NCBI GenBank assembly: GCA_052390515.1 | Contig: JBQTGV010000210.1 | Location: 1 to 23,658 of the forward strand | Length of the DNA: 23,658 bases | From: Candidatus Eiseniibacteriota bacterium | Lineage (GTDB): Bacteria > ARS69 | Direction: 5' to 3' | Shown here: one piece after another, positions 1,726 through 23,658 of the stretch | Layout of the letters: the number at the start of each line of letters is the position of its first letter | Numbering within the stretch: position 1 is the stretch's first letter | Translations under genes and position numbers: made by a program | The notes under the pieces: generated by a model | What the model was told of the DNA's origin: nothing | Databases searched by the model: none | Seen by the model: only the letters and a program-made list of their open reading frames with translations

Positions 1726-3147
1726 ATGCGCCGAACGAAAATCGTCGCGACGCTCGGACCGGCGTCGTCGGACGAGGATGTCCTCGTCGAGCTGATCCGC
1801 GCGGGCGTCGACGTCGTGCGCCTCAACTACTCGCACGGCAGCCACGCCTCCCAGGGCGAAACGCTTTCGCGCGTGCGCCGGGCGGCGGAGCGGGCCGGCC
1901 GCGAGATCGGGGTCCTTCAGGATCTCGCCGGCCCGAAGATCCGCACCGGGGACGTGGAGGGCGGCGGCAGCATCTCGCTGCGCGCGGGCGACGACCTCCT
2001 CCTCGTGCGCGAGCCCGGGCCGGTGACGCCGGGACGGCTCACGACGACGCTGCCGGCGCTGGCGGACGAGCTGCGCCCCGACCACGCGGTGCTGCTCAGC
2101 GACGGACGCATGGAGCTCCGCGTCACGTCGCGCACGGAAGAGGGCGTGAAGCTCCGAGTCGTCCGCGGCGGCGAGCTCACGGGCCGCGCCGGGATCAACC
2201 TTCCGATGACCCGCGTTCCGGTCAGCTCGCTGACCCCGAAGGACCTCGCCGACATGGAGCACGGCGTGCGCGCCGGGGCGGACATGACCGCGCTGTCCTT
2301 CGTGCGGCACCCCAACGACCTGGTGGAGACGCGGGACCAGGCGCGCGACCGGCGCCTGGACGTCTTCCTGATCGCCAAGATCGAGAAGCCGGAGGCGGTC
2401 GACAATCTCGACGCGATCCTGGACGTGGCCGACGGCGTGATGGTGGCCCGCGGCGATCTCGGCGTGGAGCTGCCCGCGGAGGACGTGCCGCTCCTGCAGA
2501 AGCGGATCATCCGCGCGGCAAACGAACGACGCATCCCGGTGATCACCGCGACGCAGATGCTCGAGTCCATGGTCGCGAGCCCGGTGGCGACGAGGGCCGA
2601 GGCGTCCGACGTGGCCAACGCGATCTTCGACGGGACCGACGCGGTGATGCTCTCCGGGGAGACCGCGGTCGGCCGCTATCCGCTGGAGGCGGTGAAGACG
2701 ATGGCCCGCATCGCCACGAAGGCCGACCAGCCGGAGCCGGTGAAGCACCGCCTGCGCTCGCCGGCGAGGGAGCTGCGGCCCCCCGAAGCGGTGGCGCGGG
2801 CCGCCAGCCGCGCGGCGGACGACGTGGGAGCCCGCGCGATCGTCGTGTACACGGAATCCGGGACGACGGCCCGCCTGCTGGCCTCCCATCGCCCCGGCGT
2901 GCCCATCCTCGCGCTGTCGCCGGATGCCCGCACCATACGCCGACTGCGCCTGTCCTGGGGCGTCTATCCGCGGGTCATGCCGCGCGTCGAGCGGCTGGCC
3001 GAGATGCTCGATCTCGGCGAACGGCTCTTGATCGAGGCCGAGCAGGTCCGGCCGGGCGATCGGGTCGTCGTCGTGTCCGGCACCAAGGCGGCGAATCGCG
3101 GCGGCACCAACATGCTGAAGATCCTGACCGTGGGAGAGATGGACTGA
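1726..3147 (+). CDS. pyk: Pyruvate kinase (473 aa)
   Basis: Signature motifs RRTKIVATLGPAS, RLNYSHG, DLAGPKIRTG, IAKIEKPEAV, DGVMVARGDLGVE, ATQMLESM, DVANAIFDGTDAVMLSGETA. Confidence 0.98.
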   Translation: MRRTKIVATLGPASSDEDVLVELIRAGVDVVRLNYSHGSHASQGETLSRVRRAAERAGREIGVLQDLAGPKIRTGDVEGGGSISLRAGDDLLLVREPGPVTPGRLTTTLPALADELRPDHAVLLSDGRMELRVTSRTEEGVKLRVVRGGELTGRAGINLPMTRVPVSSLTPKDLADMEHGVRAGADMTALSFVRHPNDLVETRDQARDRRLDVFLIAKIEKPEAVDNLDAILDVADGVMVARGDLGVELPAEDVPLLQKRIIRAANERRIPVITATQMLESMVASPVATRAEASDVANAIFDGTDAVMLSGETAVGRYPLEAVKTMARIATKADQPEPVKHRLRSPARELRPPEAVARAASRAADDVGARAIVVYTESGTTARLLASHRPGVPILALSPDARTIRRLRLSWGVYPRVMPRVERLAEMLDLGERLLIEAEQVRPGDRVVVVSGTKAANRGGTNMLKILTVGEMD

Positions 3148-3189
3148 CCGGCTCCGTGTAACAGAACGGTCAGAAAGCGGGGGCCTCGC

Positions 3190-3239
3190 TTCCGCGCCCT
3201 CCACCCCCATGCTAGACTTCGCGGGTCTATCAACGGGAG
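3190..3239 (+). promoter_or_regulatory. Putative extended -10 promoter and RBS for the selenoprotein gene
   Basis: TG-C-TAGACT at 3210-3218, with a weak -35 (TTCCGC 3190-3195, 17-nt spacer). GGGAG at 3235-3239 lies 6 nt before ATG 3246. Confidence 0.5.
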
Positions 3240-3245
3240 TCCTCG

Positions 3246-4628
3246 ATGCGAAAGACCCTGGGAACCGCCTTCGCCCTGGCCGGCGTGATGTTCGGGATCG
3301 GCAGCTCTCCCGACCCCGGCGTGGGGGACAAGCTCTTCCTCGTCTACTCGACCGACGAGCGGGGCGAGCTCCACCCCTGCGGCTGAAAGGCCAAGGACAA
3401 GGGTGGGCTGGCCCGGCGGGCCGGCGAGATCATAGAGCTGAGGAAGAGTCACCCGAGGCTTTTCACCTGTACGGCCGGAGACATCTTCGAGCTGAGGAAG
3501 TCGTCGTCCCAGCCGTCGGCGGAGACCAAGGTGAACGCGGACTACGTGAGCCGCGCGTTCCAGCTCCTGCAGTACGACGCCATCGGGCTGGGAGAGAAGG
3601 ACCTGTCCTATGGTCCCGACTACCTCAGGTCGCAGGCCGCCGCGCTGTCCTTGCCTTTCGTGTGTACGAACGCCATCGACAAGAAGAGCGGCAAGCCCCT
3701 GTTCGACCGGTGGATCGTCCGCGAACGGGAAGGTCTGCGCGTCGGATTCCTGGCGGTGATCTCGCCCGAGCGGCACCTCGTGGCGCAGGTGGAATCGGAC
3801 CTGCTCGAGCACGGGATCGAGATCACAGACCCCACCCAGGCTGTCCAGGAGGTTCTCCCCGAGATCCGCAAGCAGGCCGACGTCGTCGTGCTCCTCTCGC
3901 ACGCGGGGATCGAGACGTCCAAGTTCCTGGCCGAGGATCTCGACGTGGACGTGGTCGTCGTCGGTCACTTCCCCGCCGTCCAGAACGATCCGGAGAAGAT
4001 CGGCGGCGCCGTCTACGCCATGGCCGGCGGACAGACGGATCGGTACGGCACGCTCGAGCTGACGCTCTCCGCGGATCGCTCGGAGATCGTCGCGTTCGAC
4101 GGGGACGCGATCCGCGTACTGAAGGACGGCCCGACGCACGGCGAGCTCGCCGCGCTGGAGCTGGAGTGGGACCAGGCGGTAGCGGCGATCCGCCGGGAGA
4201 CGCAGCTCGCGGCGCAACGCGCCCGTGAGTCGGAGGTGCGTGAGAAGGTAGCTTCCGACGTCCATTCGCGCGGGGGCATCTTCGGGGCGGAGTCCTGCAA
4301 GACCTGTCATCAGGACACGTACGACTCGTGGATGGCCACGCCGCACGCCACCGCCTTCGCCCGCCTGGCGGAGGCCGACGCCTGGGACAATCCCGATTGC
4401 ATCGGCTGCCACGTGACCGGCGTCGCCGAGAAGCACTATGTCGCCGACGTGAACGTGAACCCGGAGATCTGGAATGTGCAGTGCGAGGAGTGCCACGGAA
4501 GTGGCCTGCAGCACGCGCGCGACGGCACCTACGTGACCCAGGGCGAAGCGACCTGCCGCAAGTGCCACGATCCGGAGAACAGCCCGGAATTCGACTTCGA
4601 GATCTACTCGAGCTACGGGGTCCATTGA
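3246..4628 (+). CDS. Predicted selenocysteine-containing secreted UshA/5'-nucleotidase-like domain + tetraheme cytochrome c (c554-like) fusion, 460 aa, Sec at codon 47 (TGA 3384-3386)
   Basis: ATG 3246 is in frame with track ORF 3531-4628. It reads MRKTLGTAFALAGVMFGIGSSPDPGVGDKLFLVYSTDERGELHPCG(TGA)KAKDKGGLARRAGEIIELRKSHPRLFTCTAGDIF..., and metallophosphoesterase-fold motifs run across the TGA. Four CxxCH motifs: CKTCH 4296-4310, CIGCH 4398-4412, CEECH 4482-4496, CRKCH 4554-4568. Confidence 0.85.
3407..3425 (+). promoter_or_regulatory. Candidate bacterial SECIS stem-loop
   Basis: GCUGGCCC-[GGC]-GGGCCGGC forms an 8-bp stem with one G-U pair. The apical loop starts with G at 3415, 28 nt after the UGA. 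Confidence 0.65.
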
Positions 4629-5590
4629 TCCGGCGGCTCGCGGCCACCGGAATCGTGCTGGTCCTCTCCGCTTCGCCCACGCCGTGCGGCGCGTGGGGCG
4701 GGCGCATGCACGAGATCATCAACCGCAAGGCCGCCGAGCTGTGTCCGGGTGACGCCCGCGCGGCGTGGAGCCCGCTCGCCGTGGCGCTCGGAGCGCACGC
4801 GTCCGACGCGGATCACCGCAAGTCGTCCGTTGCGGGGGAGAGCGTCCGCCACTTCCTCGACATCGACGCGTGGGACGATCCCCCCTTCGACGACGTACCC
4901 CGCTCCTTCGAGGCGCTCGCCCGCAAGCACGGTACGGAGGAAGCGAAGCGGTTCGGCGTCGTCCCCTGGGCGATCGACGAGTGCTACCGCATGCTGGTGC
5001 TATCGCTCCGGCGCGGCGACTGGTCCTCGGCGGGAGCCTGGGCCGCCGACCTGGGCCACTACGTGGCCGATTCGCACCAGCCGCTGCACTGTACGGTCAA
5101 CTACGACGGCCAGGTGACCGGCAACAAGGGGATCCACATCCGCTTCGAAGTCACCATGATGGACCGCTTCTTCCGCGAGGAGTCGATCCCACAACCGGAG
5201 GCGACGGAAGTGGAGGGCGGGCCGATCGAGTTCTGCTTCGATTGGATCGCCGCCACGCATCCCGACGTGACCGGGATCCTGGCGGCGGACGACGCGGCGA
5301 AGAGGGTCGATCCCGACTACGGTGATCTCTACTACGAGACGCTCTGGGAGGGTACGCGCGAGCTCGCCGTCCGGCACATGAGCCGCGCGGTGCAGGACCT
5401 CTCCGCTCTGTATGTGGCCGCCTGGGTCGAAGCAGGTGCACCGGCTCCGCCTCCCGAGGTCCCGGCGTTTCGCGCCCTATCTGTCTCGGAGCTAGAGCCG
5501 CCGCCGCCCGGGCCCTCCGTCGCGCCTCGCGGGGCGATAGCGGCTGCGCTGGCAGCTATCATCGCGGCCATGGCCTTCGGTAGCCGCTGA
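4625..5590 (+). CDS. Secreted zinc-dependent phospholipase C / S1-P1 nuclease family protein with a C-terminal hydrophobic anchor (about 321 aa)
   Basis: The TTG start overlaps the upstream TGA (TTGA 4625-4628). A signal peptide is followed by a mature WGGRMH start (Trp1/His6 pattern). Other motifs: HFLDID, DLGHYVADSHQPLH, GIHIRFE. It ends in a Pro-rich linker and GAIAAALAAIIAAMAFGSR. Confidence 0.8.
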   Translation: MIRRLAATGIVLVLSASPTPCGAWGGRMHEIINRKAAELCPGDARAAWSPLAVALGAHASDADHRKSSVAGESVRHFLDIDAWDDPPFDDVPRSFEALARKHGTEEAKRFGVVPWAIDECYRMLVLSLRRGDWSSAGAWAADLGHYVADSHQPLHCTVNYDGQVTGNKGIHIRFEVTMMDRFFREESIPQPEATEVEGGPIEFCFDWIAATHPDVTGILAADDAAKRVDPDYGDLYYETLWEGTRELAVRHMSRAVQDLSALYVAAWVEAGAPAPPPEVPAFRALSVSELEPPPPGPSVAPRGAIAAALAAIIAAMAFGSR

Positions 5591-5665
5591 GGCCCCTCAA
5601 GGCAATACGGAGCCCTGCCGACCCATGAACAGGGCGACTTCGATTCCCTCCGGAGGCATCGTCCC

Positions 5666-6031
5666 GTGGCCAAGCGGATCCTCGTGGTGGACGATCAGGA
5701 GAGCATGCGCCACATGCTGGCCGACCTCCTGGAGATGATGGGCCACGAGTCGCGGACCGTGGAGAGCGGGCTCGAGGCGCTCGAGCAGCTCGGCGACGAC
5801 GTCGACTTGGTCATCACCGACCTCAACATGCCCGAGATGGACGGCCTGGAGCTCATGAAGCGCATCAAGGCGCGCATCCCCGGTCTGCCCGTCATCGTGA
5901 TCACCGGCTACGGCACGTTCAACACCGAGCGCCAGGTCCTCTCCGACGGCGCCGACGGCTACATCCCCAAGCCATGCACGATCCACCGCGTCCAGGAGAC
6001 GGTGAACAGCGCGCTCGGCATCGAGCCCTGA
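5666..6031 (+). CDS. Single-domain response regulator (CheY-like receiver), 121 aa
   Basis: Motifs ILVVDD, VITDLNMPEMDG (phospho-Asp), VIVITG, GADGYIPKP. GGAGG RBS at 5652-5656. Confidence 0.93.
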   Translation: MAKRILVVDDQESMRHMLADLLEMMGHESRTVESGLEALEQLGDDVDLVITDLNMPEMDGLELMKRIKARIPGLPVIVITGYGTFNTERQVLSDGADGYIPKPCTIHRVQETVNSALGIEP

Positions 6032-6044
6032 TCGCGCGGCGGCG

Positions 6045-6053
6045 TGCTATCCT
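6045..6053 (+). promoter_or_regulatory. Putative extended -10 promoter of the methyltransferase-bsh operon
   Basis: TG-C-TATCCT in the short intergenic gap. AAGGGG RBS at 6081-6086 precedes GTG 6093. Confidence 0.45.
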
Positions 6054-6092
6054 CCCGCACCGCGTCACCCACGCGGGGCGAAGGGGTGGTCC

Positions 6093-6839
6093 GTGTCCTG
6101 GGTCGCCGACGCGTTCGGCAGCTGGTACGCCGAGGTCTACCCGCACCGCGACGCGGCGGAGGCGGACCGCGTGGTGCGGACCCTGGAGCGCTCGCGACGC
6201 CTCGCCGGCCTTCGCCTCCTGGATCTGGGGTGCGGCACGGGACGCCACCTGCCGCCGCTCGCCGCCGCCGGCGCGCGACCTACGGGGCTCGATCTCTCGG
6301 CCGCCCTGCTCGCCGAGGCGTCCCGGCTCCGCGCCGATACCGGGGGCCGCTGGCCGCTCCTGCGCGCCGACTTCCGGCACCTGCCCTTCCGGGACCGCTC
6401 GTTCGAGGGCCTGACCTCGTTCTTCACGAGCTTCGGATACTTCGGGGACGAGGAGGACCGCCGGGGGCTGCGCGAAGCGGCGCGCCTGCTCGTGCCGGGA
6501 GGGTTCCACCTGCTGGACTTCCTGAACCCCGACACGGTGCCGGCGCATCCCACGCCCGAGACGGAACGGGTCCAGGGCGAATGGCGCATCCGCGAACACC
6601 GTCGCGTCGAGTCCGGGCGCAGGGTCGTGAAGCGGATCACGATCCTGCCGCGTTCGGGAGGAAGCCCGGTGGCGGACTACGAGGAGCGGGTGACGCTCTA
6701 CGGTGCGGCGGAGATCCGGGCGTTGCTCGCCGAAGCGCGGCTGCGCGTGGTGGAGGAGTGGGGCGACTACGACGGCTCGCCGTTCGACGCCGCCCGCAGC
6801 GCGCGGCACGTCTTCCTCTCGACGCGGGAGACCGAATGA
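6093..6839 (+). CDS. Class I SAM-dependent methyltransferase (candidate bacillithiol N-methyltransferase, NmbA-like)
   Basis: Motif I LLDLGCGTGRH, plus ADFRHLPF, FTSFGYF and LVPGG. The stop overlaps the bshC start (ATGA). The specific function is inferred from gene context only. Confidence 0.85.
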   Translation: MSWVADAFGSWYAEVYPHRDAAEADRVVRTLERSRRLAGLRLLDLGCGTGRHLPPLAAAGARPTGLDLSAALLAEASRLRADTGGRWPLLRADFRHLPFRDRSFEGLTSFFTSFGYFGDEEDRRGLREAARLLVPGGFHLLDFLNPDTVPAHPTPETERVQGEWRIREHRRVESGRRVVKRITILPRSGGSPVADYEERVTLYGAAEIRALLAEARLRVVEEWGDYDGSPFDAARSARHVFLSTRETE

Positions 6840-8461
6840 GCGCGACGACGCGCGCGCCGGCCTCGCTGTCCGTCGAGACCTCGGGGTTCGTCGCGGCGTG
6901 GCTCCGCGGCGAAGCAGGCGAGTGGCTTCCCCGCATCCCGTCGAGCCCGGACGCCTGGGCGTCCCGCATCGCGGAGGCGGCCGAGCGCCCCCCGGCGCGG
7001 GATCTCTGGACGCGCGCGGCCCGAGACGGCCGTCGCCTAGGCGCCGACGCGCTCTCCGTGCGGAACGCCGAAACCCTCGCCCAGGGCGAAGCGGTCTGCG
7101 TCACCAGCGGACAGCAGCCGGGTCTCCTGCTCGGGCCGCTGTACACCGCCTACAAGGCCATGACCGCGATCGTCCTCGCAGAGGAGCTCTCTCCCCGCGC
7201 CGGCCGCCCGGTCGTACCAGTCTTCTGGAATGCCGCCGATGACAGCGACTTCGCCGAGATCGGGAGCACCTGTCTCGCGCTCGATGGATTCGCGCTCACC
7301 GCCTGGTCGCTGGACGGCGGCGATCTTCCCGCCGGCGCCCCCGTCGGCGACCTGGCCCTCGAGGGAACGCGGCGCGTGGTGGATGCGCTGCGGGACGATC
7401 TCTCCCGGTCGCCGAGCGGAGCCGCCCTCCTTCAGAGCCTCGACGGCGCCCTGGAGCGCGCGTCGGATCACGGCGAGTTGAGCAGCGCACTCCTGCTCGA
7501 CCTCTTCCGCGGCACGGGCCTCGTGGTCGTGGACGCGCGCTGGCCGGAGCTGCGCCGTGCCGCGGCACCGCTCTGGCGCCGCTGGGCAGGCGTGCGCGAG
7601 GAGGCCGCGCGAAGCATCGTGGAGACCGGGGCCGCCCTGGAGCGCTGCGGATTCCGAGCGCCGATCCAGGAAGGCTCGACGCGGAACGGCCTCTTCGACG
7701 TGCGCTCCGGGCGCCGTCTGCCCTTCGCCGGCTCGACCGAGGAGCTCCTCGCCCGCATCGACTCCGCCCCCGAGTCGCTCGCGCCCAACGTGACGCTTCG
7801 CCCGCTCGTGCAGGATTCGCTCTTTCCCGGAGTGGCGACGGTCGGGGGACCGAGCGAGATCGCCTACCACGCCCAGCTCTCCGCGGAGTACCGCATGCTC
7901 GGCGTCCCGCTCCCCGTGCTGTTCCCGCGCCTCGCCGCGACGCTCGTTCCCCGCGGCGTGCTGGAGCTTTCCGCGCGGCGGAGCGAACCCTTGGCGAGCT
8001 TCGTCGACGACTTCGACCGGGCCATGCGCCTCACCGGCGACCGCATCGTGCCGGAGCCGCTGCGCCGGGCGATGGACGCGCTGGAGCGGAGTATGAACGA
8101 CGGGCTGGATCGCGTCGGCCGGGAAGCGGAGCCGTTCGACACGAAGCTCGCCGCCCTGCTCCCCGACGTGCGGCGCCGCATCGGCGACACGCTCGGACGC
8201 CTGCGCGAGAAGACGGCGGCGGCGGCACGCGCGGCCGAGGCTCGCCGCGATCCGCACGTGAACCTGTACCGCGAGTTCGTGAAGCCGCGTGGGATCGCGC
8301 AGGAGCGCGTCCTCTCCGCGCTGGCGCTGTTCCTGGACTCGGCAGCGCATCCGCTGGAGTCCCGCCGCGAGGCCCTCGCCCTGCACTTCGAGAGCCTGCG
8401 GCGGGGCGAGCTGCGGCACTGGCTGCTCGACCTCGGTGAGTCCCCGGGAGCGCGCTCATGA
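6836..8461 (+). CDS. bshC: Bacillithiol biosynthesis cysteine-adding enzyme BshC (541 aa)
   Basis: Motifs VTSGQQPGLLLGPLYTAYKA, VPVFWNAADDSDFAEI, PNVTLRPLVQD, GGPSEIAYHAQL, a coiled-coil region and PRGIAQERV. The real start is ATG 6836; the track ORF from 6044 is over-extended. Confidence 0.92.
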   Translation: MSATTRAPASLSVETSGFVAAWLRGEAGEWLPRIPSSPDAWASRIAEAAERPPARDLWTRAARDGRRLGADALSVRNAETLAQGEAVCVTSGQQPGLLLGPLYTAYKAMTAIVLAEELSPRAGRPVVPVFWNAADDSDFAEIGSTCLALDGFALTAWSLDGGDLPAGAPVGDLALEGTRRVVDALRDDLSRSPSGAALLQSLDGALERASDHGELSSALLLDLFRGTGLVVVDARWPELRRAAAPLWRRWAGVREEAARSIVETGAALERCGFRAPIQEGSTRNGLFDVRSGRRLPFAGSTEELLARIDSAPESLAPNVTLRPLVQDSLFPGVATVGGPSEIAYHAQLSAEYRMLGVPLPVLFPRLAATLVPRGVLELSARRSEPLASFVDDFDRAMRLTGDRIVPEPLRRAMDALERSMNDGLDRVGREAEPFDTKLAALLPDVRRRIGDTLGRLREKTAAAARAAEARRDPHVNLYREFVKPRGIAQERVLSALALFLDSAAHPLESRREALALHFESLRRGELRHWLLDLGESPGARS

Positions 8462-9171
8462 CCGTCGTCGCCGTCGGCGCCCACCCGGACGACGTGGATC
8501 TGTACGCCGGCGGCCTCGTGGCCGCGCTGGCCCGAGCGGGGGAGCGCGTCGCGCTGGTGGATCTCAGTGCCGGGGAGATGGCCACGCGGGGGACCCCGGA
8601 GCTGCGCGCGCGCGAGGCGGCGGAAGCCGCGCGACACCTCGGCGCCGCCTCGCGTGAATGTCTGCGGCTCCCGGACGGCGGCATCGCGCGCACCGACGCC
8701 GCGCAGACGCGCTCGGTGGTCGAGGTGCTTCGCCGGCACCGGCCCTCGCTGATCCTCGCCCCGTGGGAGGAGGACTTGCATCCCGACCACCGCGAGACCG
8801 CGCACCTGGTGCGGCGCGCGCGCTTCTTCGCCCGGCTCGCGGGGTACGCGGCGGCGGGGGAGCCGTGCCGGCCCGGGCCGGTGCTCTTCTACGAGCAGAA
8901 GCTCCCGTTCGTGCCCGATCTGATTGTGGACATCGGCGTGGTGCGGGAGGCGAAGCTCGCGGCGGTGCGCGCCTTCGCCTCGCAGTTCTTCCGCGAGCCG
9001 GACGATCCCGTGCGCACGGAGATCTCCGATCCCGGGTTCCACGAGATGCTGGAGGCGCGCTCCCGCGAGCGCGGCGCGCGCATCGGTGTGACCTGGGGCG
9101 AAGGGTACCGCCGCGACGGGCCGCAGGCCGTCGTCGATCCCCGACAGCTGATTCCCGGAGCGCCGGCGTGA
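8458..9171 (+). CDS. bshB1: Bacillithiol biosynthesis GlcNAc-malate deacetylase (PIG-L family), 237 aa
   Basis: Motifs GAHPDD, DLSAGEMATRGTPELR, LRLPDG, DLHPDH, AFASQF. It lies between bshC and bshA. Confidence 0.92.
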   Translation: MTVVAVGAHPDDVDLYAGGLVAALARAGERVALVDLSAGEMATRGTPELRAREAAEAARHLGAASRECLRLPDGGIARTDAAQTRSVVEVLRRHRPSLILAPWEEDLHPDHRETAHLVRRARFFARLAGYAAAGEPCRPGPVLFYEQKLPFVPDLIVDIGVVREAKLAAVRAFASQFFREPDDPVRTEISDPGFHEMLEARSRERGARIGVTWGEGYRRDGPQAVVDPRQLIPGAPA

Positions 9172-10289
9172 AGATCGCCATGGTCTGCTACGCGAGCCAC
9201 GGAGGCAGCGGCATCGTCGCCACCGAGCTCGGGGCGGCGCTCGCGGCGCGCGGCCACGAGGTGCACTTCGTCACCAACGACGTGCCCGTACGGCTGAACC
9301 GCTTCTCCGAGAACCTCTACTTCCACCGCGTGGACGTGGACAACTATCCGGTGTTCCCGCACCCGCCGTACCTCCTCAACCTGGCGGTGAAGATCCTGGA
9401 CGTGATCCGCGCGCACGACATCGACGTGGTGCACGCGCACTACGCGGTGCCGCACGCCACCTGCACGTATCTCGCGCGGGAGATGCGCAAGCCCCGCCGC
9501 GTGGCCACGGTGACGACCCTGCACGGTACCGACATCACCCTGGTGGGGATCAAGCCATCATTCTACGAGATCACCCGCTTCTCCATCCGCCAGAGCGACC
9601 GGGTCACCGCGGTCTCCGAATGGCTCCGCTGCAAGACGTGCGAGAGCTTCGACCTCGATCAGGACATCGTGGTGATTCCCAACTGGGTGAACTCGGAGGC
9701 GTTCCGCCCGTTCCCGGCCGGACGCAAGCGCCGCGCATTCGTGCGCGAAGGGGAGTTCGTGCTGATGCACGCCTCCAACTTCCGGCCGGTGAAGAACATC
9801 CCCACGGTGGTGGAGGTGTTCCGGCGCCTGCGTGAGCGTTACCCGGTGCGGCTGCTCCTCGTCGGTGACGGCCCGGAGGTGGCCCGCGCCGAGGAGACGG
9901 TGCGGCGCAACGGACTCGCCGACGTCGTGCACTTCCTGGGTGCGCAGGAGTACCTGGAGGACGTGCTGCCGCTGGCCGACGCCTTCCTCCTGCCCAGCGA
10001 GCACGAGAGCTTCGGCCTGGCGGCGCTGGAGGCGATGAGCGCCGGCGTGGGAGTCATCGCCACGAGCGAGGGGGGCACGCGCGAGATCATCCGCCACGGG
10101 GAGAACGGATTCCTGTTCGATCCGCACGACGTGGACGGAATGGTCGCGACGATCGGCGCGCTCGTGGAGGATCCGGCGAAGCTCGAGCGCGTCGAGCGCG
10201 AGGCCCGCAAAACGGCGGTGGAGCAGTTCCGCCCGGATCACGCCGTGGCGAGCTACCTGCGCGTGTACGAGGAGGCGCTCGGCCGGTGA
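9168..10289 (+). CDS. bshA: N-acetyl-alpha-D-glucosaminyl L-malate synthase (GT4), 373 aa
   Basis: Starts at GTG 9168. Motifs KIAMVCYASHGGSGIVATELG, HAHYAVPHA, TTLHGTDITLVG, HASNFRPVK, ESFGLAALEAM. Confidence 0.95.
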   Translation: MKIAMVCYASHGGSGIVATELGAALAARGHEVHFVTNDVPVRLNRFSENLYFHRVDVDNYPVFPHPPYLLNLAVKILDVIRAHDIDVVHAHYAVPHATCTYLAREMRKPRRVATVTTLHGTDITLVGIKPSFYEITRFSIRQSDRVTAVSEWLRCKTCESFDLDQDIVVIPNWVNSEAFRPFPAGRKRRAFVREGEFVLMHASNFRPVKNIPTVVEVFRRLRERYPVRLLLVGDGPEVARAEETVRRNGLADVVHFLGAQEYLEDVLPLADAFLLPSEHESFGLAALEAMSAGVGVIATSEGGTREIIRHGENGFLFDPHDVDGMVATIGALVEDPAKLERVEREARKTAVEQFRPDHAVASYLRVYEEALGR

Positions 10290-16704: not shown

Positions 16705-16805
16705 GTGGCGCTCCGACTGGAACGACAAGGAACGCGCGACCGAGCCATGGACGGCGAGCGAGCTTGAGCGAGGCCGCGCGTCTCCTTTCATTCCAGTCGG
16801 GCCAC
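16705..16805. repeat. Long imperfect inverted repeat between convergent pdxH and hemY (REP/MITE-like element or bidirectional terminator)
   Basis: The left arm 16713-16741 is CCGACTGGAACGACAAGGAACGCGCGACC. The reverse complement of 16772-16800 is CCGACTGGAATGAAAGGAGACGCGCGGCC. An outer GTGGC/GCCAC pair extends the stem. Confidence 0.75.
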
Positions 16806-18148
16806 TATACCGCCGTCGCGAGCGCTGCCCCGGCGACGCGCCCCGCGTCGGCCACGAGGTGATTCACGGCGACGCCGCGCCACGCCGCGCCGGCCGGCAC
16901 GAGCCCGGGGAGCGCCGCCGTCTCCCGCTCCAGTGCGGCAAGCCGCGTCGGGTGGCCGAGGTCATACTGCGGGATGGCGCCCGGGTGCACCACGACGCGC
17001 ACCGCGTCCGGCTCGCCGCGTATCCCGAGCGGCTCGCGCACGGCGGCCAGGGCGCGCGCGGCGATCTCGCCGGGCGAACCGGCCGCCGCCGCGGGATTGC
17101 GCGAGCCACCCGCGAGCACGCGCAGCAGCACGCGTCCCTCCGGCGCGCGGCCGGGGAAGACGCTGGACTCGAAGAGGCAGCCGAGCACCGGGTGGCGGCC
17201 TCCCGGCACGAGGTAGCCGTAGCCGTCGAGCGGATGATCCACCGCGTCCCGCGCGAGCAGGAACCCGCACACCGCGACGTCCGCGGCGCCGATCTCCCGC
17301 GCCAGTCCGGCGATTCCCGGCGCCGCCTTCGCCAGCAAGGCCGCGGTGACCGGCGCCGGCGTGGCCAGCACCAATGCGCCGGCCTCGTGCGTGACGCCGT
17401 TCGCGGTGACGCGCCAGCCTGCGCCGTCCCGCGTGATCCCGCTCACCGGGCTGGAGAGGCGCACGCGTTCGCCCAGCTCCCGGCGGAGCGCAGTCACCAG
17501 CACTTCGAACCCGCCGCGGAAGCTGGTGAGGCGCTTGCCGAAGGGAGAAGCGCCTTGGCTTTTGCGCGCGCGCATGGCGCGGAAGAGGCCGCCGTGCTCG
17601 CGCTCCATGGCGGTCATCTTGGGGAAGCACGCGTCCACGGACAGCGCGCGCGGATCGCCGGCGAAGATGCCGGTGACCGCCGCGTCGACCAGCACCTCCG
17701 CGGCCTCGCGTCCGATGCGCCGCGCGGCGAAGGCGTGGATGGACTCCGGCGAAGCGCCGTTCGGACCCTTCGCCCAGGGCTCGGCCAGGAGGCGCAGCTT
17801 GGCCTGGGGTGAGAGCAGCGGCGTCCCGAGCAGCGCGGGCGGCGACATGGGCAGCGCACATAGCCGTCCGCCGTGCAGCAGATAGCGGCGCTTGGCGACG
17901 TCCGAGGCGGGGAGGAGCTCCGCGTCGAGCCCGAGCTCCTCGACGGCGTCGAGCACGCCGGGCCGCTCGGCGAGAAACCCCTGCGGCCCCAGCTCGAGGA
18001 CGGCCCCATTCCACGACTCGGTGCGGACGTAGCCGCCGGCCCGATCGCCGGCCTCCAGCACGAGCGGCTCTCCGCCCCGCCGGAGGATCTCCCGGGCCGC
18101 GGCCAGCCCGGCGATCCCTCCGCCGACGACCAGCACCTCGCGTCCCAC
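16805..18148 (-). CDS. hemY: FAD-dependent protoporphyrinogen/coproporphyrinogen oxidase (HemY family; often annotated hemG), 447 aa
   Basis: Rossmann motif VVGGGIAGLAAA, plus LEAGDRAGG, ELGPQGF, GIFAGDP, GYGYLVP, SSVFPGRAP and AIPQYDLGH. Last gene of the hem operon. Confidence 0.93.
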   Translation of the reverse strand: MGREVLVVGGGIAGLAAAREILRRGGEPLVLEAGDRAGGYVRTESWNGAVLELGPQGFLAERPGVLDAVEELGLDAELLPASDVAKRRYLLHGGRLCALPMSPPALLGTPLLSPQAKLRLLAEPWAKGPNGASPESIHAFAARRIGREAAEVLVDAAVTGIFAGDPRALSVDACFPKMTAMEREHGGLFRAMRARKSQGASPFGKRLTSFRGGFEVLVTALRRELGERVRLSSPVSGITRDGAGWRVTANGVTHEAGALVLATPAPVTAALLAKAAPGIAGLAREIGAADVAVCGFLLARDAVDHPLDGYGYLVPGGRHPVLGCLFESSVFPGRAPEGRVLLRVLAGGSRNPAAAAGSPGEIAARALAAVREPLGIRGEPDAVRVVVHPGAIPQYDLGHPTRLAALERETAALPGLVPAGAAWRGVAVNHLVADAGRVAGAALATAV

Positions 18149-18149
18149 G

Positions 18150-19541
18150 TCACACCGTCCGGGAGAAGACCGGACCTTCGCGCGTCATGCGGCGCAGGTA
18201 CTCGTCGAACACCATGGCCACGTTGCGCACGAAGAGCCGGCCGAGCCCGACGACGCGGATCCCGGCCGCGTCCATCTCCACGAACCCCTCGCGACGCTCG
18301 GCCTCCAGCGCCTCCAGCTCGTCGGCGAAGTGCTCGGCGAAGTCGATCCCGTGGCGCGCCTCGATGGCACGCCGGTCGACCTTCCCGTTGCACATGAGCG
18401 ACTGGATGACGTCGCGACGCAGGCGGTCCTCCGCGGACAGGACGACGCCGCGAAAAACGGGGAGCGTCCCGGCTCGGATGGCCTTCGCCCAGGGTGGGAT
18501 CACCTTGAGGTTCTGGAAGTGGGCGGCGCCCACGTCGCCGATCGCGGAGATGCCGAGTCCGATCATGTCCGGCGCAGGTCGCGTCGTGTAGCCCATGAAG
18601 TTGCGGTGCAGCCGGCCTTCGCGCGCGGCGACGGCCAGCTCGTCGCCCGGCAGCGCGAAGTGGTCCATGCCGATGGCCTCGTAGCCTGCGTCGCCGAACG
18701 CCTGCCGCGCCTCGGCGAAGAGCCGGATCTTCTCCGCCGCAGAGGGGAGGAGCTCCTCCTCGGTCTTCCGCTGGTTGGCCTTCATCCAAGGCACGTGCGC
18801 GTAGCTGTACACCGCGACGCGCTCCGGCCGGAGGCGGACCACCTTGCGCAGGTTCTCGGCGAACGTCGTGGCGGTCTGCCTGGGCAGTCCGTAGATGAGA
18901 TCCACGTTCAGCGACTCGAAGCCGAGCCTGCGGCACTTCTCGACGAGCCGCCGCGTCTCCTCCCACGTCTGGTTGCGCGAGATGGCCGCCTGCACCTCGG
19001 GCGTGAAGTCCTGCACGCCCATGGAAAGCCGGTTGAAGCCGAGGCGCCGCAGCACGAGGAGGTGCTCGTCGGAGGTGACGCGTGGATCCACCTCCAGCGC
19101 GATCTCCGCGCCCGCCTCGATGCGGAACCGCGAGACGATCTTGGCGAAGAGCGCCTCCATCTCCGCCGGCGTCTGGAAGGTCGGCGTGCCGCCGCCCCAG
19201 TGTAGCTGCAGGACGCGGTTGCGGCCTCCGAGCCGGTCGGCCACGAGATCGATCTCGGCGTGCAGCGTCTCGAGGTAACTCTCGGAGACGTCGTGCTTGC
19301 TGGTGATCACCACGTGACAGCCGCAGAACGTGCAGCGCTCCCGGCAGAAGGGCAGGTGGAAGTAGAGCGAGAGCGGATCGCCGCTCTTCGCCGCCTGGGC
19401 GAGATGGCTCTCGTAGCGCTCCGCGCCGACCTCCTCGCGGAACTCGACCGCAGTCGGGTAGGAGGTGTACCTCGGCCCGGGCCTGTCGTACTTCTCGATC
19501 AGCGCGGCGATGCGCGCGGCGTCGAGCCTGGCCTCGCTCAT
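18150..19541 (-). CDS. hemN: Oxygen-independent coproporphyrinogen III oxidase (radical SAM), 463 aa
   Basis: KYDRPGPRYTSYPTA N-terminus typical of true HemN, plus HLPFCRERCTFCGC, HWGGGTPT, RLSMGVQDF and GMDHFA...LHRNFMGY. ATG 19541 overlaps the hemE stop. Confidence 0.96.
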   Translation of the reverse strand: MSEARLDAARIAALIEKYDRPGPRYTSYPTAVEFREEVGAERYESHLAQAAKSGDPLSLYFHLPFCRERCTFCGCHVVITSKHDVSESYLETLHAEIDLVADRLGGRNRVLQLHWGGGTPTFQTPAEMEALFAKIVSRFRIEAGAEIALEVDPRVTSDEHLLVLRRLGFNRLSMGVQDFTPEVQAAISRNQTWEETRRLVEKCRRLGFESLNVDLIYGLPRQTATTFAENLRKVVRLRPERVAVYSYAHVPWMKANQRKTEEELLPSAAEKIRLFAEARQAFGDAGYEAIGMDHFALPGDELAVAAREGRLHRNFMGYTTRPAPDMIGLGISAIGDVGAAHFQNLKVIPPWAKAIRAGTLPVFRGVVLSAEDRLRRDVIQSLMCNGKVDRRAIEARHGIDFAEHFADELEALEAERREGFVEMDAAGIRVVGLGRLFVRNVAMVFDEYLRRMTREGPVFSRTV

Positions 19542-20581
19542 GAGCGCATCTCCCGGCTGAGGTCGTGCACGAGGCGGACGCAGAGCTGCGCCGCCCTCAT
19601 CTCGGTCATCGGCAGGATGCCGTGGCCCAGGTTGAAGACGTGGCCGGCCTCGGCGCCGGCGCCCTCCAGCACCTCGCGCACACGCGCGGCGAGCTGCCGC
19701 TCGGAGCCGAGCAGCGCGCCCGGATCGAGGTTGCCCTGGAGCGGCATGGTCGGGAAGAGAGCACGCGCGTCGGCCATGCGCACCCGCCAGTCGAGCCCCA
19801 GCATGCGCGCGCCGCTCGCCGTCTGCAGCGCGAGCGCGGCGCCGGCGCCCGGCGCGAAGTAGATCGTCGGCAGCTCCGCGCCGGCCGCGAGGCGATCGAA
19901 GACGCGGCGCGCGGCGGGAAGAGCGAAGCTCTCGAGATCCGGCGGCGAGAGCACGCCCGCCCAGGAGTCGAAGAGCTGCACCGCGTGCGCGCCGGCCCGC
20001 ACCTGCACGCCGAGCCAGTCGGCGATGCGGTCGGCGAGAAACGCGAGCAGCTCGGCGAACGACTCCGGATCGGAGTGCATCATGCGGCGCGTGTGCTCGT
20101 GCTCCTTGGAGCTGCCGCCCTCGAGCAGGTACGTCGCCAGGGTGAATGGCGCGCCGGCGAAGCCGATCAGCGGAACCCGGCCCTCGAGTCGGTCCAGGGT
20201 CGCGCGGACGCACTCGTCGAGCCAAGCCCAGTGCCGCCTCGGGTCGGGGACGCAGAGGCTCTCGGTCCCGGCCGACGGATCCCAGCGCTCCAGTACCGGT
20301 CCGGGGCGGAAGTCCACCGGGATGCCCATCGCCTCCAGCGGGAGGAGGATGTCCGAGAACAGGATGGCGGCGTCCACGTCGAGCCGTTCCACCGGCTCGA
20401 TGGTCACCTCCGCACAGAGCTCCGGCCGCCGGGCGAGATCCAGGAACGAGTGCTTCCCGCGGAGCGCGCGGTAGCCGGGGAGCACGCGTCCGGCCTGGCG
20501 CATGATCCAGACCGGGGTGGCGTCGACGCGCTCCCCGCGGGCGGCGCGCAGCATTCGGTCGTTGACACAGGTCACAGTCAC
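19538..20581 (-). CDS. hemE: Uroporphyrinogen decarboxylase (347 aa)
   Basis: Motifs PVWIMRQAGR, DAAILFSDIL, LIGFAGAPFTLATY, QLFDSWAG, LQGNLDP, HVFNLGHGI. GTG 20581 overlaps the hemL stop. Confidence 0.96.
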   Translation of the reverse strand: MTVTCVNDRMLRAARGERVDATPVWIMRQAGRVLPGYRALRGKHSFLDLARRPELCAEVTIEPVERLDVDAAILFSDILLPLEAMGIPVDFRPGPVLERWDPSAGTESLCVPDPRRHWAWLDECVRATLDRLEGRVPLIGFAGAPFTLATYLLEGGSSKEHEHTRRMMHSDPESFAELLAFLADRIADWLGVQVRAGAHAVQLFDSWAGVLSPPDLESFALPAARRVFDRLAAGAELPTIYFAPGAGAALALQTASGARMLGLDWRVRMADARALFPTMPLQGNLDPGALLGSERQLAARVREVLEGAGAEAGHVFNLGHGILPMTEMRAAQLCVRLVHDLSREMRS

Positions 20582-21900
20582 TTCGCCACCTCTTGCGCCT
20601 CGATCAGCGCCTCCCGGGACGCGGCGAGGAAGCGGTCCACGTCCTCCTCGCGGTGCGCGCCGGAGAGGAAGCCCGCCTCGTACTGCGACGGCGCCACGGA
20701 CATGCCGCGTCGGACCAGCCCGTGGAACCACTTGGCGAAGGTCCGCGTGTCGCCCTTGGACGCATCGCTCCAGGTGCGGACCGGGCCGCGCGCGAAGTAC
20801 AGGCAGAAGAGCGACCCGACGCGCTGGAAGCAGTTGCGGCCGGAGAGGCCGAGATCGTCGAGCGCGCTTCGTGCGCCGGCCTCGAGCCGCGCGCCCAGCC
20901 GCTCGAGGCGTGCGTAGAGGCCGGTGTCCGCGTCGATGGCGTCCAGCATGGCGATGCCGGCAGCCATGGCCAACGGGTTTCCGGAGAGCGTGCCCGCCTG
21001 GTACACGTCTCCCTCCGGGGACACGTGACGCATCAGCTCGCGGGGGCCGCCGTACGCGCCCACGGGCAGCCCGCCGCCGATCACCTTGCCCAGCGTGGTG
21101 AGGTCCGGGCGGACGCCGTACAGCTCCTGCGCGCCGCCCCGCGCGACGCGGAAGCCGGTCATCACCTCGTCGAAGATCAGCAGAGCGCCGGACTCGTCGC
21201 AGGCGCGGCGAAGCCCCTGGAGGAATCCCGGCTCGGGCGGGATGCAGCCGGCGTTCCCGGCCACGGGCTCGACGATCACCGCGGCCACGGCGGCGCGGTT
21301 CGCGTCGAGGACCTCCCGGACCGAGTCGAGGTCGTTGAAACGCGCGTTGCGCGTGTCCGCCGCGACGCCCGCCGTGACGCCCGGGCTCGTCGGCGTGCCG
21401 AACGTCGCTGGGCCGGATCCGGCCTGGATGAGGAAGGAGTCGGCGTGTCCGTGGTAGCAGCCCTCGAACTTGACGACGACGGCGCGCCCCGTGACCGCGC
21501 GGGCCAGCCGCACCGCGCTCATCGTCGCCTCGGTGCCGGAGCTCACGAAGCGCACGCTCTCGATCGAGGGCACGCGCGCCACGATGCGCTCGGCGAGCTC
21601 CACCTCGCGCACGCAGGAAGCGCCGAAGCTCGTACCGGAGCCGGCCGCATCCCGCACCGCGGCCACGATGGCGGGATGCGCGTGGCCGAGCAGCATCGGC
21701 CCCCAGGAGCCGACGAAGTCCAGGAGCTCGCGGCCGTCCTCGGTCACCAGCACGGCGCCGTGCGCCTCGCGGACGAAGAAGGGGGTCCCGCCGACGGCCT
21801 TCCAGGCGCGCACCGGCGAGCTCACTCCGCCCGGCATCACCGCGCGGGCGCGCTCCGCCAAGACGTCCTCGACCGATGCGGTCCGCGTCATCCGATCCAC
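20578..21900 (-). CDS. hemL: Glutamate-1-semialdehyde 2,1-aminomutase
   Basis: Motifs MPGGVSSPVRA, SWGPMLLGHA, VSSGTEATMSAVRLARA, FEGCYHGHAD, FDEVMTGFR, LGKVIGGGLPVGAYGG, YQAGTLSGNP. The start is GTG 21900 (AAGGAGG upstream) or ATG 21891 (ATGA overlap with hemB). Confidence 0.96.
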   Translation of the reverse strand: MDRMTRTASVEDVLAERARAVMPGGVSSPVRAWKAVGGTPFFVREAHGAVLVTEDGRELLDFVGSWGPMLLGHAHPAIVAAVRDAAGSGTSFGASCVREVELAERIVARVPSIESVRFVSSGTEATMSAVRLARAVTGRAVVVKFEGCYHGHADSFLIQAGSGPATFGTPTSPGVTAGVAADTRNARFNDLDSVREVLDANRAAVAAVIVEPVAGNAGCIPPEPGFLQGLRRACDESGALLIFDEVMTGFRVARGGAQELYGVRPDLTTLGKVIGGGLPVGAYGGPRELMRHVSPEGDVYQAGTLSGNPLAMAAGIAMLDAIDADTGLYARLERLGARLEAGARSALDDLGLSGRNCFQRVGSLFCLYFARGPVRTWSDASKGDTRTFAKWFHGLVRRGMSVAPSQYEAGFLSGAHREEDVDRFLAASREALIEAQEVAK

Positions 21901-22859
21901 CGGGCGACCTCCTTCGCATGGTAGGTCAGCAGGATCTTCGCCCCGGCGCGGCGGATCGAACCGAGCGTCTCCAGCACGGCCGCGCGCTCGTCGAGCCAGC
22001 CCGCGGCGGCGGCGGCCTTCACCATGGAATACTCGCCGGAGACGTTGTACGCGGCGATCGGCACGGCGCAGCGCGCCGCGGCCTCGTGCACGACGTCCAG
22101 GTAGGCGAGAGCCGGCTTGACCATGACGATGTCCGCTCCCTCGGTGATGTCCAGCTCGATCTCTCGCAGCGCCTCGCGCGCGTTGGCCGAGTCCATCTGG
22201 TAAGCGCGGCGGTCGCCGAAGGCCGGCGTGGAACCCGCGGCGTCGCGGAACGGGCCGTAGAACGCGGAGGCGTACTTCGCCGCGTAGGACACGATCACCG
22301 TGTCGGTGAAGCCGCGCGCATCGAGTGCGCGGCGGATCTCGCCGACCCGACCGTCCATCATGTCGGACGGACAGACCGCGTCCGCTCCGACCTCGGCGTA
22401 CACCACGGCCGCCTTCGCCAGCAGCTCGACCGTCGGGTCGTTGAGCACGCGGCCGTCCTCGACGACGCCGCAGTGGCCGTGGCCCGTGTACTCACACAGG
22501 CAGACGTCCGCCCATACCAGGAGGTCGGGGACGGCGGCCTTCACCGCGCGGACCGCGCGGGGGATGATGCCCTGCGGATCGTAGCCCTGGCTCCCGCGCG
22601 CGTCCTTCGCCGCAGGAATCCCGAAGAGGATGATCCCCGGAATGCCGAGCCGGTGCGCCTCGCCGGCTTCCTCGACGAGCGCGTCGATCGAGAGCCGGCA
22701 GCAACCGGGCATGCTCGGGATGGGCTCGCGCACGCCTTCGCCCTCCCGCACGAAGAGCGGCAGCACGAGATCGTCGACCGAGAGCTGCGTCTCGCGGACG
22801 AGACCTCTCCAGGCGGGCGTGCGGCGAAGGCGCCGCGGGCGGTGCGGGAGCTCCATCAT
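21888..22859 (-). CDS. hemB: Porphobilinogen synthase (ALA dehydratase), Zn-binding type
   Basis: Motifs RPRRLRR, DVCLCEYTGHGHCG (three Zn-binding Cys), PSDMMDGRV, KYASAFYGPFRDAA, EGADIVMVKP, AYNVSGEY. Confidence 0.97.
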   Translation of the reverse strand: MMELPHRPRRLRRTPAWRGLVRETQLSVDDLVLPLFVREGEGVREPIPSMPGCCRLSIDALVEEAGEAHRLGIPGIILFGIPAAKDARGSQGYDPQGIIPRAVRAVKAAVPDLLVWADVCLCEYTGHGHCGVVEDGRVLNDPTVELLAKAAVVYAEVGADAVCPSDMMDGRVGEIRRALDARGFTDTVIVSYAAKYASAFYGPFRDAAGSTPAFGDRRAYQMDSANAREALREIELDITEGADIVMVKPALAYLDVVHEAAARCAVPIAAYNVSGEYSMVKAAAAAGWLDERAAVLETLGSIRRAGAKILLTYHAKEVARWIG

Positions 22860-22863
22860 GGCG

Positions 22864-23658
22864 TCATGCCTCTCCCGGATCGAGCACGTGGGCGACCGCC
22901 TCGGCGAGCGCCTCGAAGTCAGGGCGATCGGCCGTCACGACGTCGGTGAAGCCGAGGCGTCGCGCCGCGTCGGCGGTCGTGGCACCGATGGCCGCGACGG
23001 GGAGAGTGAACCACGCCCCGGCGAGACCCGCAGCGAGAGCTTCGGCCGCCGACGGGCTGGCCAGCGCGACGGCGTCTATGGCCTCGCCGGCTAGCGTGCC
23101 GCGCACCTCGGCGTGCCGGCGCGTCACGGTACGGTACGCGGTCACCACGCGCACGCTCGCCCCGGCCGATTCGAGCGCCCGCACGCCGTCCGACCTGGCC
23201 CGGTCCGCTGCGGCCCAGAGCACGCGCGCGCCGTCCAGCTTCGCCCCTGACTCGGCGAGGGCCACGGCGAGATCCGCGGCTCCGCCCCGGCCTACCACGG
23301 CCGGCTCCCACCCGCGCGCGCGCGCCTCCCGGGCGGTGGCCTCGCCGACGACGGCGAGCCGCGGCTGTCCGCCGTTCCTCGTCGCCTCCGCCAGGGCGCG
23401 GGCTGCGCGGGCGCTGGTGAGCACGACCCAGTCGTACGAGTCGAGGCGGGCGGCCTCGGCGCGGAGCGCGCCCGGATCCTCGGGCGGCAGCGTCTCCAGC
23501 AGCGGCAGGTTCACGACGCGCGCGCCACGGGAGCGGAGCGCGGCGGAGAGCGGACCACCGCCGCCCTCCTCCCGCGTCACCAGCACCGTGATCCCGGCGA
23601 GCGGCCCGGCGAACTGAGCAGCGCCCGTGTGCCGACCGGTCGCGCTGAACGGCGGCTC
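22864..23658 (-). CDS. hemD: Uroporphyrinogen-III synthase, 5'-partial
   Basis: Motifs PLAGITVLVTR, YDWVVLTSA, AVVGEATA, AYRT, LASPSAA, AAIGATTA. The frame stays open upstream of GTG 23586 to the window end with no further start codon, so the start lies outside the window. Confidence 0.88.
   Translation of the reverse strand, partial: EPPFSATGRHTGAAQFAGPLAGITVLVTREEGGGGPLSAALRSRGARVVNLPLLETLPPEDPGALRAEAARLDSYDWVVLTSARAARALAEATRNGGQPRLAVVGEATAREARARGWEPAVVGRGGAADLAVALAESGAKLDGARVLWAAADRARSDGVRALESAGASVRVVTAYRTVTRRHAEVRGTLAGEAIDAVALASPSAAEALAAGLAGAWFTLPVAAIGATTADAARRLGFTDVVTADRPDFEALAEAVAHVLDPGEA

Follow-up and report, generated by a model that had tools for sequence, protein, structure and literature searches.

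A probable secreted UshA-like selenoprotein with a tetraheme cytochrome domain in a Candidatus Eiseniibacteriota genome

Bacterial selenoproteins in which a domain similar to the nucleotidase UshA carries a Cys-x-selenocysteine motif (C-x-U, where U is selenocysteine, Sec) are already catalogued. The selenoprotein table of the 2008 Global Ocean Sampling study holds an entry 'COG0737, UshA-like, CxU' with 76 Sec sequences, and the article names UshA-like among the families that it discusses as previously characterised (PMC2398784); the CxU family is listed again in a 2022 review (PMC9312934) and in a 2026 review, which cites the NCBIfam family NF041198 together with a second family, NF049981 (PMC13188914). 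Our literature search found no experimental study of the UshA-like CxU family and nothing that joined a nucleotidase, a multiheme cytochrome and selenocysteine, and the papers returned for Gemmatimonadota selenoproteins had, by their titles and abstract openings, no bearing on the UshA-like family. Here we analyse the gene at positions 3246-4628 of the window (that is, the whole 23,658-nucleotide stretch of contig JBQTGV010000210.1, GenBank assembly GCA_052390515.1, from a Candidatus Eiseniibacteriota bacterium). This gene is a member of the already catalogued selenoprotein family, from a poorly studied lineage, and sequence comparisons indicate that it very probably encodes one secreted 460-residue selenoprotein with Sec at position 47, in which the nucleotidase-type fold of the UshA-like C-x-U/C-x-C family is joined to a tetraheme module.

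Other described systems resemble parts of this protein. E. coli UshA, CD73 and SoxB share the fold of its N-terminal domain, but the window protein lacks their dimetal ligands and has a tetraheme domain in place of the C-terminal nucleotide-binding domain. Cytochrome c554 of Nitrosomonas europaea (PDB 1bvb/1ft5) shares the tetraheme module, and the two sequences align directly, also over the distal-His motif W-x-x-T-x-H-A, whereas the module of the window protein is fused to an enzyme-like domain and conserves only three His outside the heme-attachment motifs. The only characterised Cys/Sec multiheme precedent returned by our literature search is MccSep (ExtKL) of Geobacter sulfurreducens, presented in its preprint as a pentaheme enzyme that reduces polysulfide, with a Cys that ligates heme and a Sec that acts in catalysis (bioRxiv 10.1101/2025.11.18.688581). 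The likeness lies in a periplasmic multiheme c-type cytochrome in which Cys and Sec act together; however, MccSep as described there has five hemes, places both Sec and Cys within its cytochrome fold and is without a phosphoesterase-like domain, and the window protein shows no homology to it beyond the heme motifs (24.5 bits against NF040886, for which the cut-off is 250), which makes MccSep an analogue only.

Reading frame and family membership

When a single TGA is read through, the frame from ATG 3246 to the stop codon TGA 4626-4628 is open for 460 codons, and its sole interruption is TGA 3384-3386 at codon 47, within the peptide LVYSTDERGELHPCG-U-KAKDKGGLARRA (HPCGU being codons 43-47). 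The product begins with MRKTLGTAFALAGVMFGIGSS, a signal-peptide-like N-terminus in which inspection revealed no lipobox Cys, and the orthologs begin with comparable signal-peptide-like N-termini. Under translation table 11 the largest open reading frame (ORF) starts at GTG 3531 (Table 1) and has neither the signal peptide nor the Cys-x-Sec motif. A preliminary description of this DNA, made from the letters alone, had pointed to the GGGAG and ATG 3246 at the head of a frame broken only by TGA 3384-3386, to the signal-peptide-like start, to four C-terminal CxxCH sites (codons 351-355, 385-389, 413-417 and 437-441) and to the lack of an export signal in the ORF from 3531, and each of these features is visible in the sequence and its translation. 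As the window is 72% G+C, a frame that stays open upstream of the TGA is weak evidence; the 46-codon stretch before the TGA is beyond chance because it is homologous to known proteins (that is, residues 28-47 align to NF041198 from model position 22 and to the same-family copies).

The dominant match of the read-through product is NF041198, 'UshA-like (seleno)protein' (UshA_like_PCGU), at 271.0 bits with a model cut-off of 275 (Table 1). Shared with this family are the P-C-G-U column, which lies in the loop that follows beta-strand 1 of the COG0737-type domain, the 5'-nucleotidase-like N-terminal domain (model positions 22-271 of 519) and the C-terminal tetraheme domain (positions 357-519, a separate match at 4116-4601 containing all four CxxCH). 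The window protein differs in leaving model positions 272-356 unmatched, owing to a shorter helical linker, and its clade differs in having two Sec paralogs per genome. Because NF041198 matches both domains and a 519-residue Cys-form representative with four hemes fits it end to end (312.6 bits), the curated family includes the tetraheme fusion. The five orthologs that were tested scored 282.6, 281.8, 279.6, 270.9 and 262.2 bits (three of the five over the cut-off) and the paralog on contig C68 of the window genome scored 221.7 bits; the clade straddles the cut-off, and we therefore assign the protein to the broader family of the literature without treating it as an automatic NF041198 equivalog.

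Many of the long family members, at 700-1200 residues, carry the UshA-like/tetraheme module C-terminally behind DUF1573 or Ig-like repeats (for example, representatives P0081-P0084, P0120, P0133 and P0152, among others). One homolog (P0072) has an N-terminal rhodanese domain, and one further long homolog shows a weak DsbA-like match under the cut-off. With fusions that are mostly of the DUF1573/Ig-like kind, one rhodanese and one sub-cut-off match, this record is too scant to assign a substrate.

UGA 3384 as a selenocysteine codon

The window genome (4.27 Mb in 223 contigs, 95% complete) encodes selA (541 bits), selB (371 bits) and selD (427 bits), all above curated cut-offs, as well as a tRNA-Sec (71.8 bits, also above its cut-off) that ARAGORN reports as tRNA-SeC with anticodon TCA; the machinery on which the preliminary description had made its proposal depend is hence present in full. 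We searched 60 related genomes, 11 of them from the same taxonomic family, with the read-through protein. An ortholog interrupted by an in-frame TGA is present in each of the 11 same-family genomes (exactly one TGA in 10 of them), and together with the window's own gene these make 12 same-family copies, which all read (F/L)LVYSxDERxELxPCG-TGA-[KH][AS]KDKGGLARRAGE. TGA stands at the same column in a further 12 sequences of the paralog clade or other Sec forms, with PCG-TGA in the paralog clade and other phyla, and Sec forms were seen in unrelated genomes and other phyla too (G046, G052 and G056). The ortholog with more than one TGA belongs to a genome that is 73% complete (G005) and looks disrupted: at this locus (L032, G005:C18:11021-12361) it aligns in several frames, has three TGAs and is missing the S1/P1-like gene downstream, and the copy is either decaying or an assembly error.

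The window genome has a second Sec paralog on the minus strand (G000:C68:51518-52729; locus L065:6501-7901), which reads TPCG-TGA-HRSPRGGLARRA. This 467-residue protein, 36% identical to the first, stands alone, ends at TGA and has its own hairpin with compensatory A-U pairs; 10 of the 11 same-family relatives likewise have such a paralog, each with a single in-frame TGA. (A frame behind the paralog gene resembles a DNA polymerase IV gene of the dinB type, as judged by eye only.) A third paralog type is a Cys form with PCECE or PCDCE at the motif (G007:C12:62505-63773 and G010:C23:41077-42348; loci L062 and L063), so that a single lineage contains both Sec and Cys versions. The Cys forms closest to the window protein are representatives P0077 and P0078 (PCTCE and PCDCE, 41-44% identity), and distant full-length homologs have PCGC, ACGC or PCSC at the Sec column.

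When 1.84 billion representatives were searched exhaustively with phmmer, 409 representative clusters were obtained at E <= 1e-30, the best 150 of which were aligned to the family hidden Markov model. All 98 representatives that cover column 47 have C-x-C there and none has Trp, Arg or another residue, in keeping with the preliminary description, which had named Cys or a conserved TGA as the expected outcome and Trp or Arg as the adverse one. The remaining 52 of the 150 start after column 47, between columns 49 and 125, a pattern that gene callers would produce by restarting past an in-frame TGA. The locus accordingly shows what is generally sought in a bacterial selenoprotein gene (that is, an in-frame UGA that aligns with Cys and is conserved in orthologs).

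Bacterial selenocysteine insertion sequence (SECIS) elements are stem-loops that lie shortly downstream of the UGA and carry a G in the apical loop. A hairpin of this form occurs at 3407-3425 (Table 1) and was found in Sec forms but not in four distant Cys forms. Across 26 Sec forms, of which 24 are distinct, standard pairs fill 95.3% of the 192 pair cells and three of the eight pairs have changed on both sides (that is, compensatory changes); not one of 500 shuffles matched the observed pairing or covariation score, and sliding the 3' arm by 1-3 columns reduced the pairing to 26.6-50.5%. The two Arg codons within the stem are CGC in 0 of 52 cases, compared with 62% of the Arg codons in nine window genes.

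The TGA is unaltered in the contigs of all four public sequencing runs compared over this region, of which two are DNA runs and not the likely source, and RNA-library contigs from a close relative bridge the TGA codon, although contigs are no proof of transcription. Differences between the run contigs and the window near the TGA are chiefly at third codon positions or are changes that also occur in orthologs (for example, A49S). Given the Sec machinery, the conservation of the TGA, the Cys at its column, the hairpin and the independent assemblies, we read TGA 3384 as Sec: SelB and tRNA-Sec, directed by the hairpin, would decode UGA 3384-3386 as selenocysteine 47. The overall interpretation put forward in the preliminary description, a periplasmic Sec47 protein linking a Cys/Sec site to four hemes, is supported, and the refutation tests that were run all favoured it.

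Domain architecture and the C-x-U loop

The N-terminal domain matches 5'-nucleotidases (PDB profiles, ~E 1e-42), 2',3'-cyclic phosphodiesterases and SoxB (NCBIfam SoxB, E 7.8e-13), with a Foldseek template modelling (TM) score of 0.52 over an alignment that spans only ~300 residues of this domain; the Foldseek and PDB profile matches include no solved structure that covers both domains. An AlphaFold2 (AF2) model built from a 70-sequence alignment (A3) has a mean predicted local distance difference test score (pLDDT) of 90.3 and a predicted TM score (pTM) of 0.75, and in it a signal helix is followed by an alpha/beta domain (residues 29-290), which a helix of 43 residues connects to a helical heme domain; the C-x-U loop lies between strand 1 and helix 1. 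Invariant in this alignment are G53, G78, the four CxxCH and H367, together with C45 and C47 (the Sec position), which are invariant there by selection of the sequences for the motif; N142 is found in 67 of the 70 sequences, and H219 and H241 are partly conserved.

Metallophosphoesterases are characterised by the motifs DxH, GDxxDR and GNH[DE]. The window protein has D37-E-R-G where D-x-H-G would be expected, G78-D-I-F-E-L, and G116-E-K-D for GNH[DE], and the family alignment has D/N/E-x-(R/N/L) at the first motif and G-(E/D)-(K/R/Q) at the last, with not one of the 70 members showing His where DxH or GNH would have it; D79 is kept in 44 of 70 and D37 is variable. The metal and catalytic motifs of the superfamily are in this sense absent, and Pfam gave no match to the 5'-nucleotidase C-terminal substrate-binding domain (PF02872). 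The preliminary description had located metallophosphoesterase motif I before the TGA, and the position is indeed there, but the catalytic His is not; its label of a metallophosphoesterase domain holds for the fold and was overstated for the catalytic residues.

As the metal ligands are gone, phosphoester hydrolysis would have been lost from the N-terminal domain. We add to the preliminary description that, with the ligands missing family-wide, the C-x-U loop is the likely active centre instead of the dimetal site and would be wired to the four c-type hemes. As to its chemistry, we lean towards a model in which a Cys/Sec redox or chalcogen/metal-binding centre with a periplasmic four-heme wire has replaced the dimetal site. 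The Cys45-x-Sec47 loop, positioned at the dimetal (first-metal-ligand) site of nucleotidases, may form a redox-active selenenylsulfide or a chalcogen- or metal-binding centre, and may exchange electrons with periplasmic carriers via the hemes. A sulfur or other chalcogen compound would be our first, and thin, guess at the substrate.

It is conceivable, if improbable, that the selenoprotein has kept a working phosphoesterase (a nucleotidase or a SoxB-like thiosulfohydrolase), with Sec47 tuning or ligating the metal site and the hemes serving as a relay or regulator. Such an enzyme would suit the identity of the best solved relatives (5'-nucleotidases and SoxB), the partial conservation of N142, H219 and H241, and the rhodanese domain of P0072; however, the DxH His and the GNH[DE] Asn-His are missing in all 70 aligned sequences, D37 and D79 vary, and the 5'-nucleotidase C-terminal substrate domain is absent.

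In the Cys/Sec-centre model that we favour, the hemes deserve separate consideration. The cytochrome domain matches the cytochrome c554 family PF13435 at 50.7 bits (cut-off 20.8) and has its four CxxCH, and the three conserved non-motif His are H367 (invariant), H423 (68 of 70) and H460, the last codon (4623-4625). The residue at the latter position is His in 58 of 70 sequences and Cys in 9 of 70, in the motif ...I-x-C-P-G, and a C-terminal His or Cys would fit an axial heme ligand of either kind. Three such His for four hemes leave room for one heme that is open or Cys/Sec-ligated. In cytochrome c554, heme II is five-coordinate, and by homology it could be the second heme that has this role here. 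That Cys45 or Sec47 ligates this heme, or that it is left open, in a second and independently evolved heme-selenium enzyme with an MccSep-like site on a different scaffold, is an unlikely possibility; if it were true, the protein would be a periplasmic reductase or oxidase for sulfur, selenium or other chalcogens, common in environmental bacteria (409 clusters).

Alternatives to selenocysteine decoding

Several observations weigh against our interpretation. The window protein falls 4 bits under the NF041198 cut-off, and the alignment behind the AF2 model was selected for the very motif at issue (the unbiased C-x-C figure is that of the 98 covering representatives). The folding energy of the hairpin is ordinary for its composition (z = -0.7), its stem also encodes the conserved peptide GLARRA, and a weaker hairpin is kept in one Cys-form paralog (L062); in view of the latter two points, the hairpin may be partly a by-product of the coding sequence. 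Rfam returned no family over gathering thresholds across the whole window and only chance-level matches around the TGA, and to our knowledge Rfam has no model for bacterial SECIS elements of this kind. Finally, 20 diverse homolog loci and the window share no neighbour family besides the target itself. As these neighbourhoods have nothing in common and the paralog stands alone, any assignment of a substrate is a guess.

We give little credence to TGA 3384 being a true stop in a decaying or split gene, with a product from 3531 only or none at all. Table 11 reads the codon in this way, all 60 close database entries are annotated accordingly, and the G005 copy looks disrupted. However, the peptide encoded by the 46 codons before the TGA is conserved in all 12 copies, each of the 98 representatives that cover the column has Cys opposite the TGA, and the Sec machinery is present. 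Attachment of c-type heme depends on Ccm and on export through the Sec translocation pathway, and a shortened cytochrome c that lacks a signal peptide would have no means of acquiring heme. That the TGA arose as an error of assembly or sequencing, or reflects genome-wide recoding of TGA to Trp, Gly or Cys, found no supporting point and is next to impossible: the identical TGA in independent-run contigs, the paralog clade and all 12 same-family copies disposes of the error that the preliminary description had allowed for, and TGA is a working stop in this genome, as the window gene and its paralog both terminate at it.

Annotation of the family and significance

In a 5.8-billion-protein collection, all 60 homologs with at least 54% identity are 278-399 residues long, and none covers more than 86% of the query. 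These close relatives, of which the named ones are proteins from Gemmatimonadota (Gemmatimonadetes) metagenome-assembled genomes, are stored N-terminally truncated, as 'hypothetical' or 'multiheme cytochrome', without the signal peptide or the active-site motif, and about a third of the best 150 family representatives look similarly truncated. The preliminary description had predicted that gene callers would mis-annotate the gene, and 60 of 60 close entries conform. It had also called the selenoprotein hidden, which is true for gene callers and untrue for the literature, since NF041198 models the family with its tetraheme fusion; its statement that UshA-like proteins with CxU had been described among the bacterial selenoproteins agrees with that model and with the published tables. 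Because the entries are truncated, these genes are overlooked or misinterpreted when selenoproteomes and cytochromes are surveyed in environmental bacteria similar to Gemmatimonadota. The family has many members and a wide distribution, and it would place a Cys-x-Sec centre and a four-heme wire on a phosphoesterase fold without metal ligands. Its existence will be no surprise to a selenoprotein specialist, and a first biochemical characterisation is worthwhile.

Feature coordinates and neighbouring genes

Table 1 Features of the selenoprotein locus and its downstream neighbours, in window coordinates
Feature	Positions	Strand	Basis or remark
Shine-Dalgarno-like GGGAG	3235..3239	+	Read from sequence; 6 nt 5' of ATG 3246
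Probable full selenoprotein gene, 460 codons plus stop, Sec as codon 47	3246..4628	+	Read-through translation; NF041198 E 1.8e-80
Predicted signal-peptide-like N-terminus (MRK, hydrophobic stretch, GIGSS)	3246..3308	+	Sequence; AF2 helix at residues 2-18
UshA/5'-nucleotidase-like metallophosphoesterase-fold domain, residues ~28-290, catalytically degenerate	3327..4115	+	NF041198; PDB profiles; Foldseek
Cys-x-Sec motif C45-G46-U47 (TGC GGC TGA)	3378..3386	+	Sequence; column shared with orthologs and paralogs
SECIS-like hairpin, 8-bp stem (3407-3414 with 3418-3425), GGC triloop	3407..3425	+	Fold; 21 nt after UGA
Shortened table-11 ORF, GTG start, 365 residues	3531..4628	+	Largest ORF under table 11; gene callers' version
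Linker helix between domains, residues 299-341	4140..4268	+	AF2 secondary structure
Cytochrome c554-like tetraheme domain, four CxxCH	4278..4625	+	PF13435; NF041198 357-519; alignment to 1bvb
CxxCH sites	4296-4310, 4398-4412, 4482-4496, 4554-4568	+	
Secreted Zn-phospholipase C/S1-P1 nuclease-like protein gene	4625..5590	+	TTG start overlaps the stop as TTGA; possible operon partner
Stand-alone response-regulator receiver gene	5666..6031	+	PF00072, 100 bits; downstream in 10 of 11 ortholog loci

Upstream of the selenoprotein gene lie genes for an FG-GAP secreted protein and a pyruvate kinase, and a scan of 3000-6200 detected no promoter or terminator. The protein encoded directly downstream scores 23.4 bits against Pfam S1-P1_nuclease, under the cut-off, and has no NCBIfam match, while its top protein-atlas match (0.96) is a cluster of the Zn-phospholipase C/S1-P1 nuclease superfamily. 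In S1/P1 nucleases and phospholipase C, Trp1 and His6 are zinc ligands, and the predicted mature N-terminus of this protein, W-G-G-R-M-H, is similar. The S1/P1-like gene directly follows the selenoprotein gene in 9 of 11 ortholog loci, the exceptions being a contig end and the disrupted G005 copy; its order with the response regulator is conserved within the same taxonomic family only.

Two further groups of genes were seen in the window. Adjoining ORFs at 6044-10289 match the BshC Rossmann-like domain, a PIG-L deacetylase (BshB-like) and a GT4 glycosyltransferase (BshA-like) and look like a bacillithiol biosynthesis cluster, in which the ORFs of 805 and 543 residues are probably over-extended at their 5' ends. 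A heme biosynthesis cluster occupies 16805-23658 on the minus strand, with genes for an amine-oxidase-type protoporphyrinogen oxidase-like protein, a HemN-like radical SAM protein, uroporphyrinogen decarboxylase, 5-aminolevulinate (ALA) dehydratase and uroporphyrinogen-III synthase.

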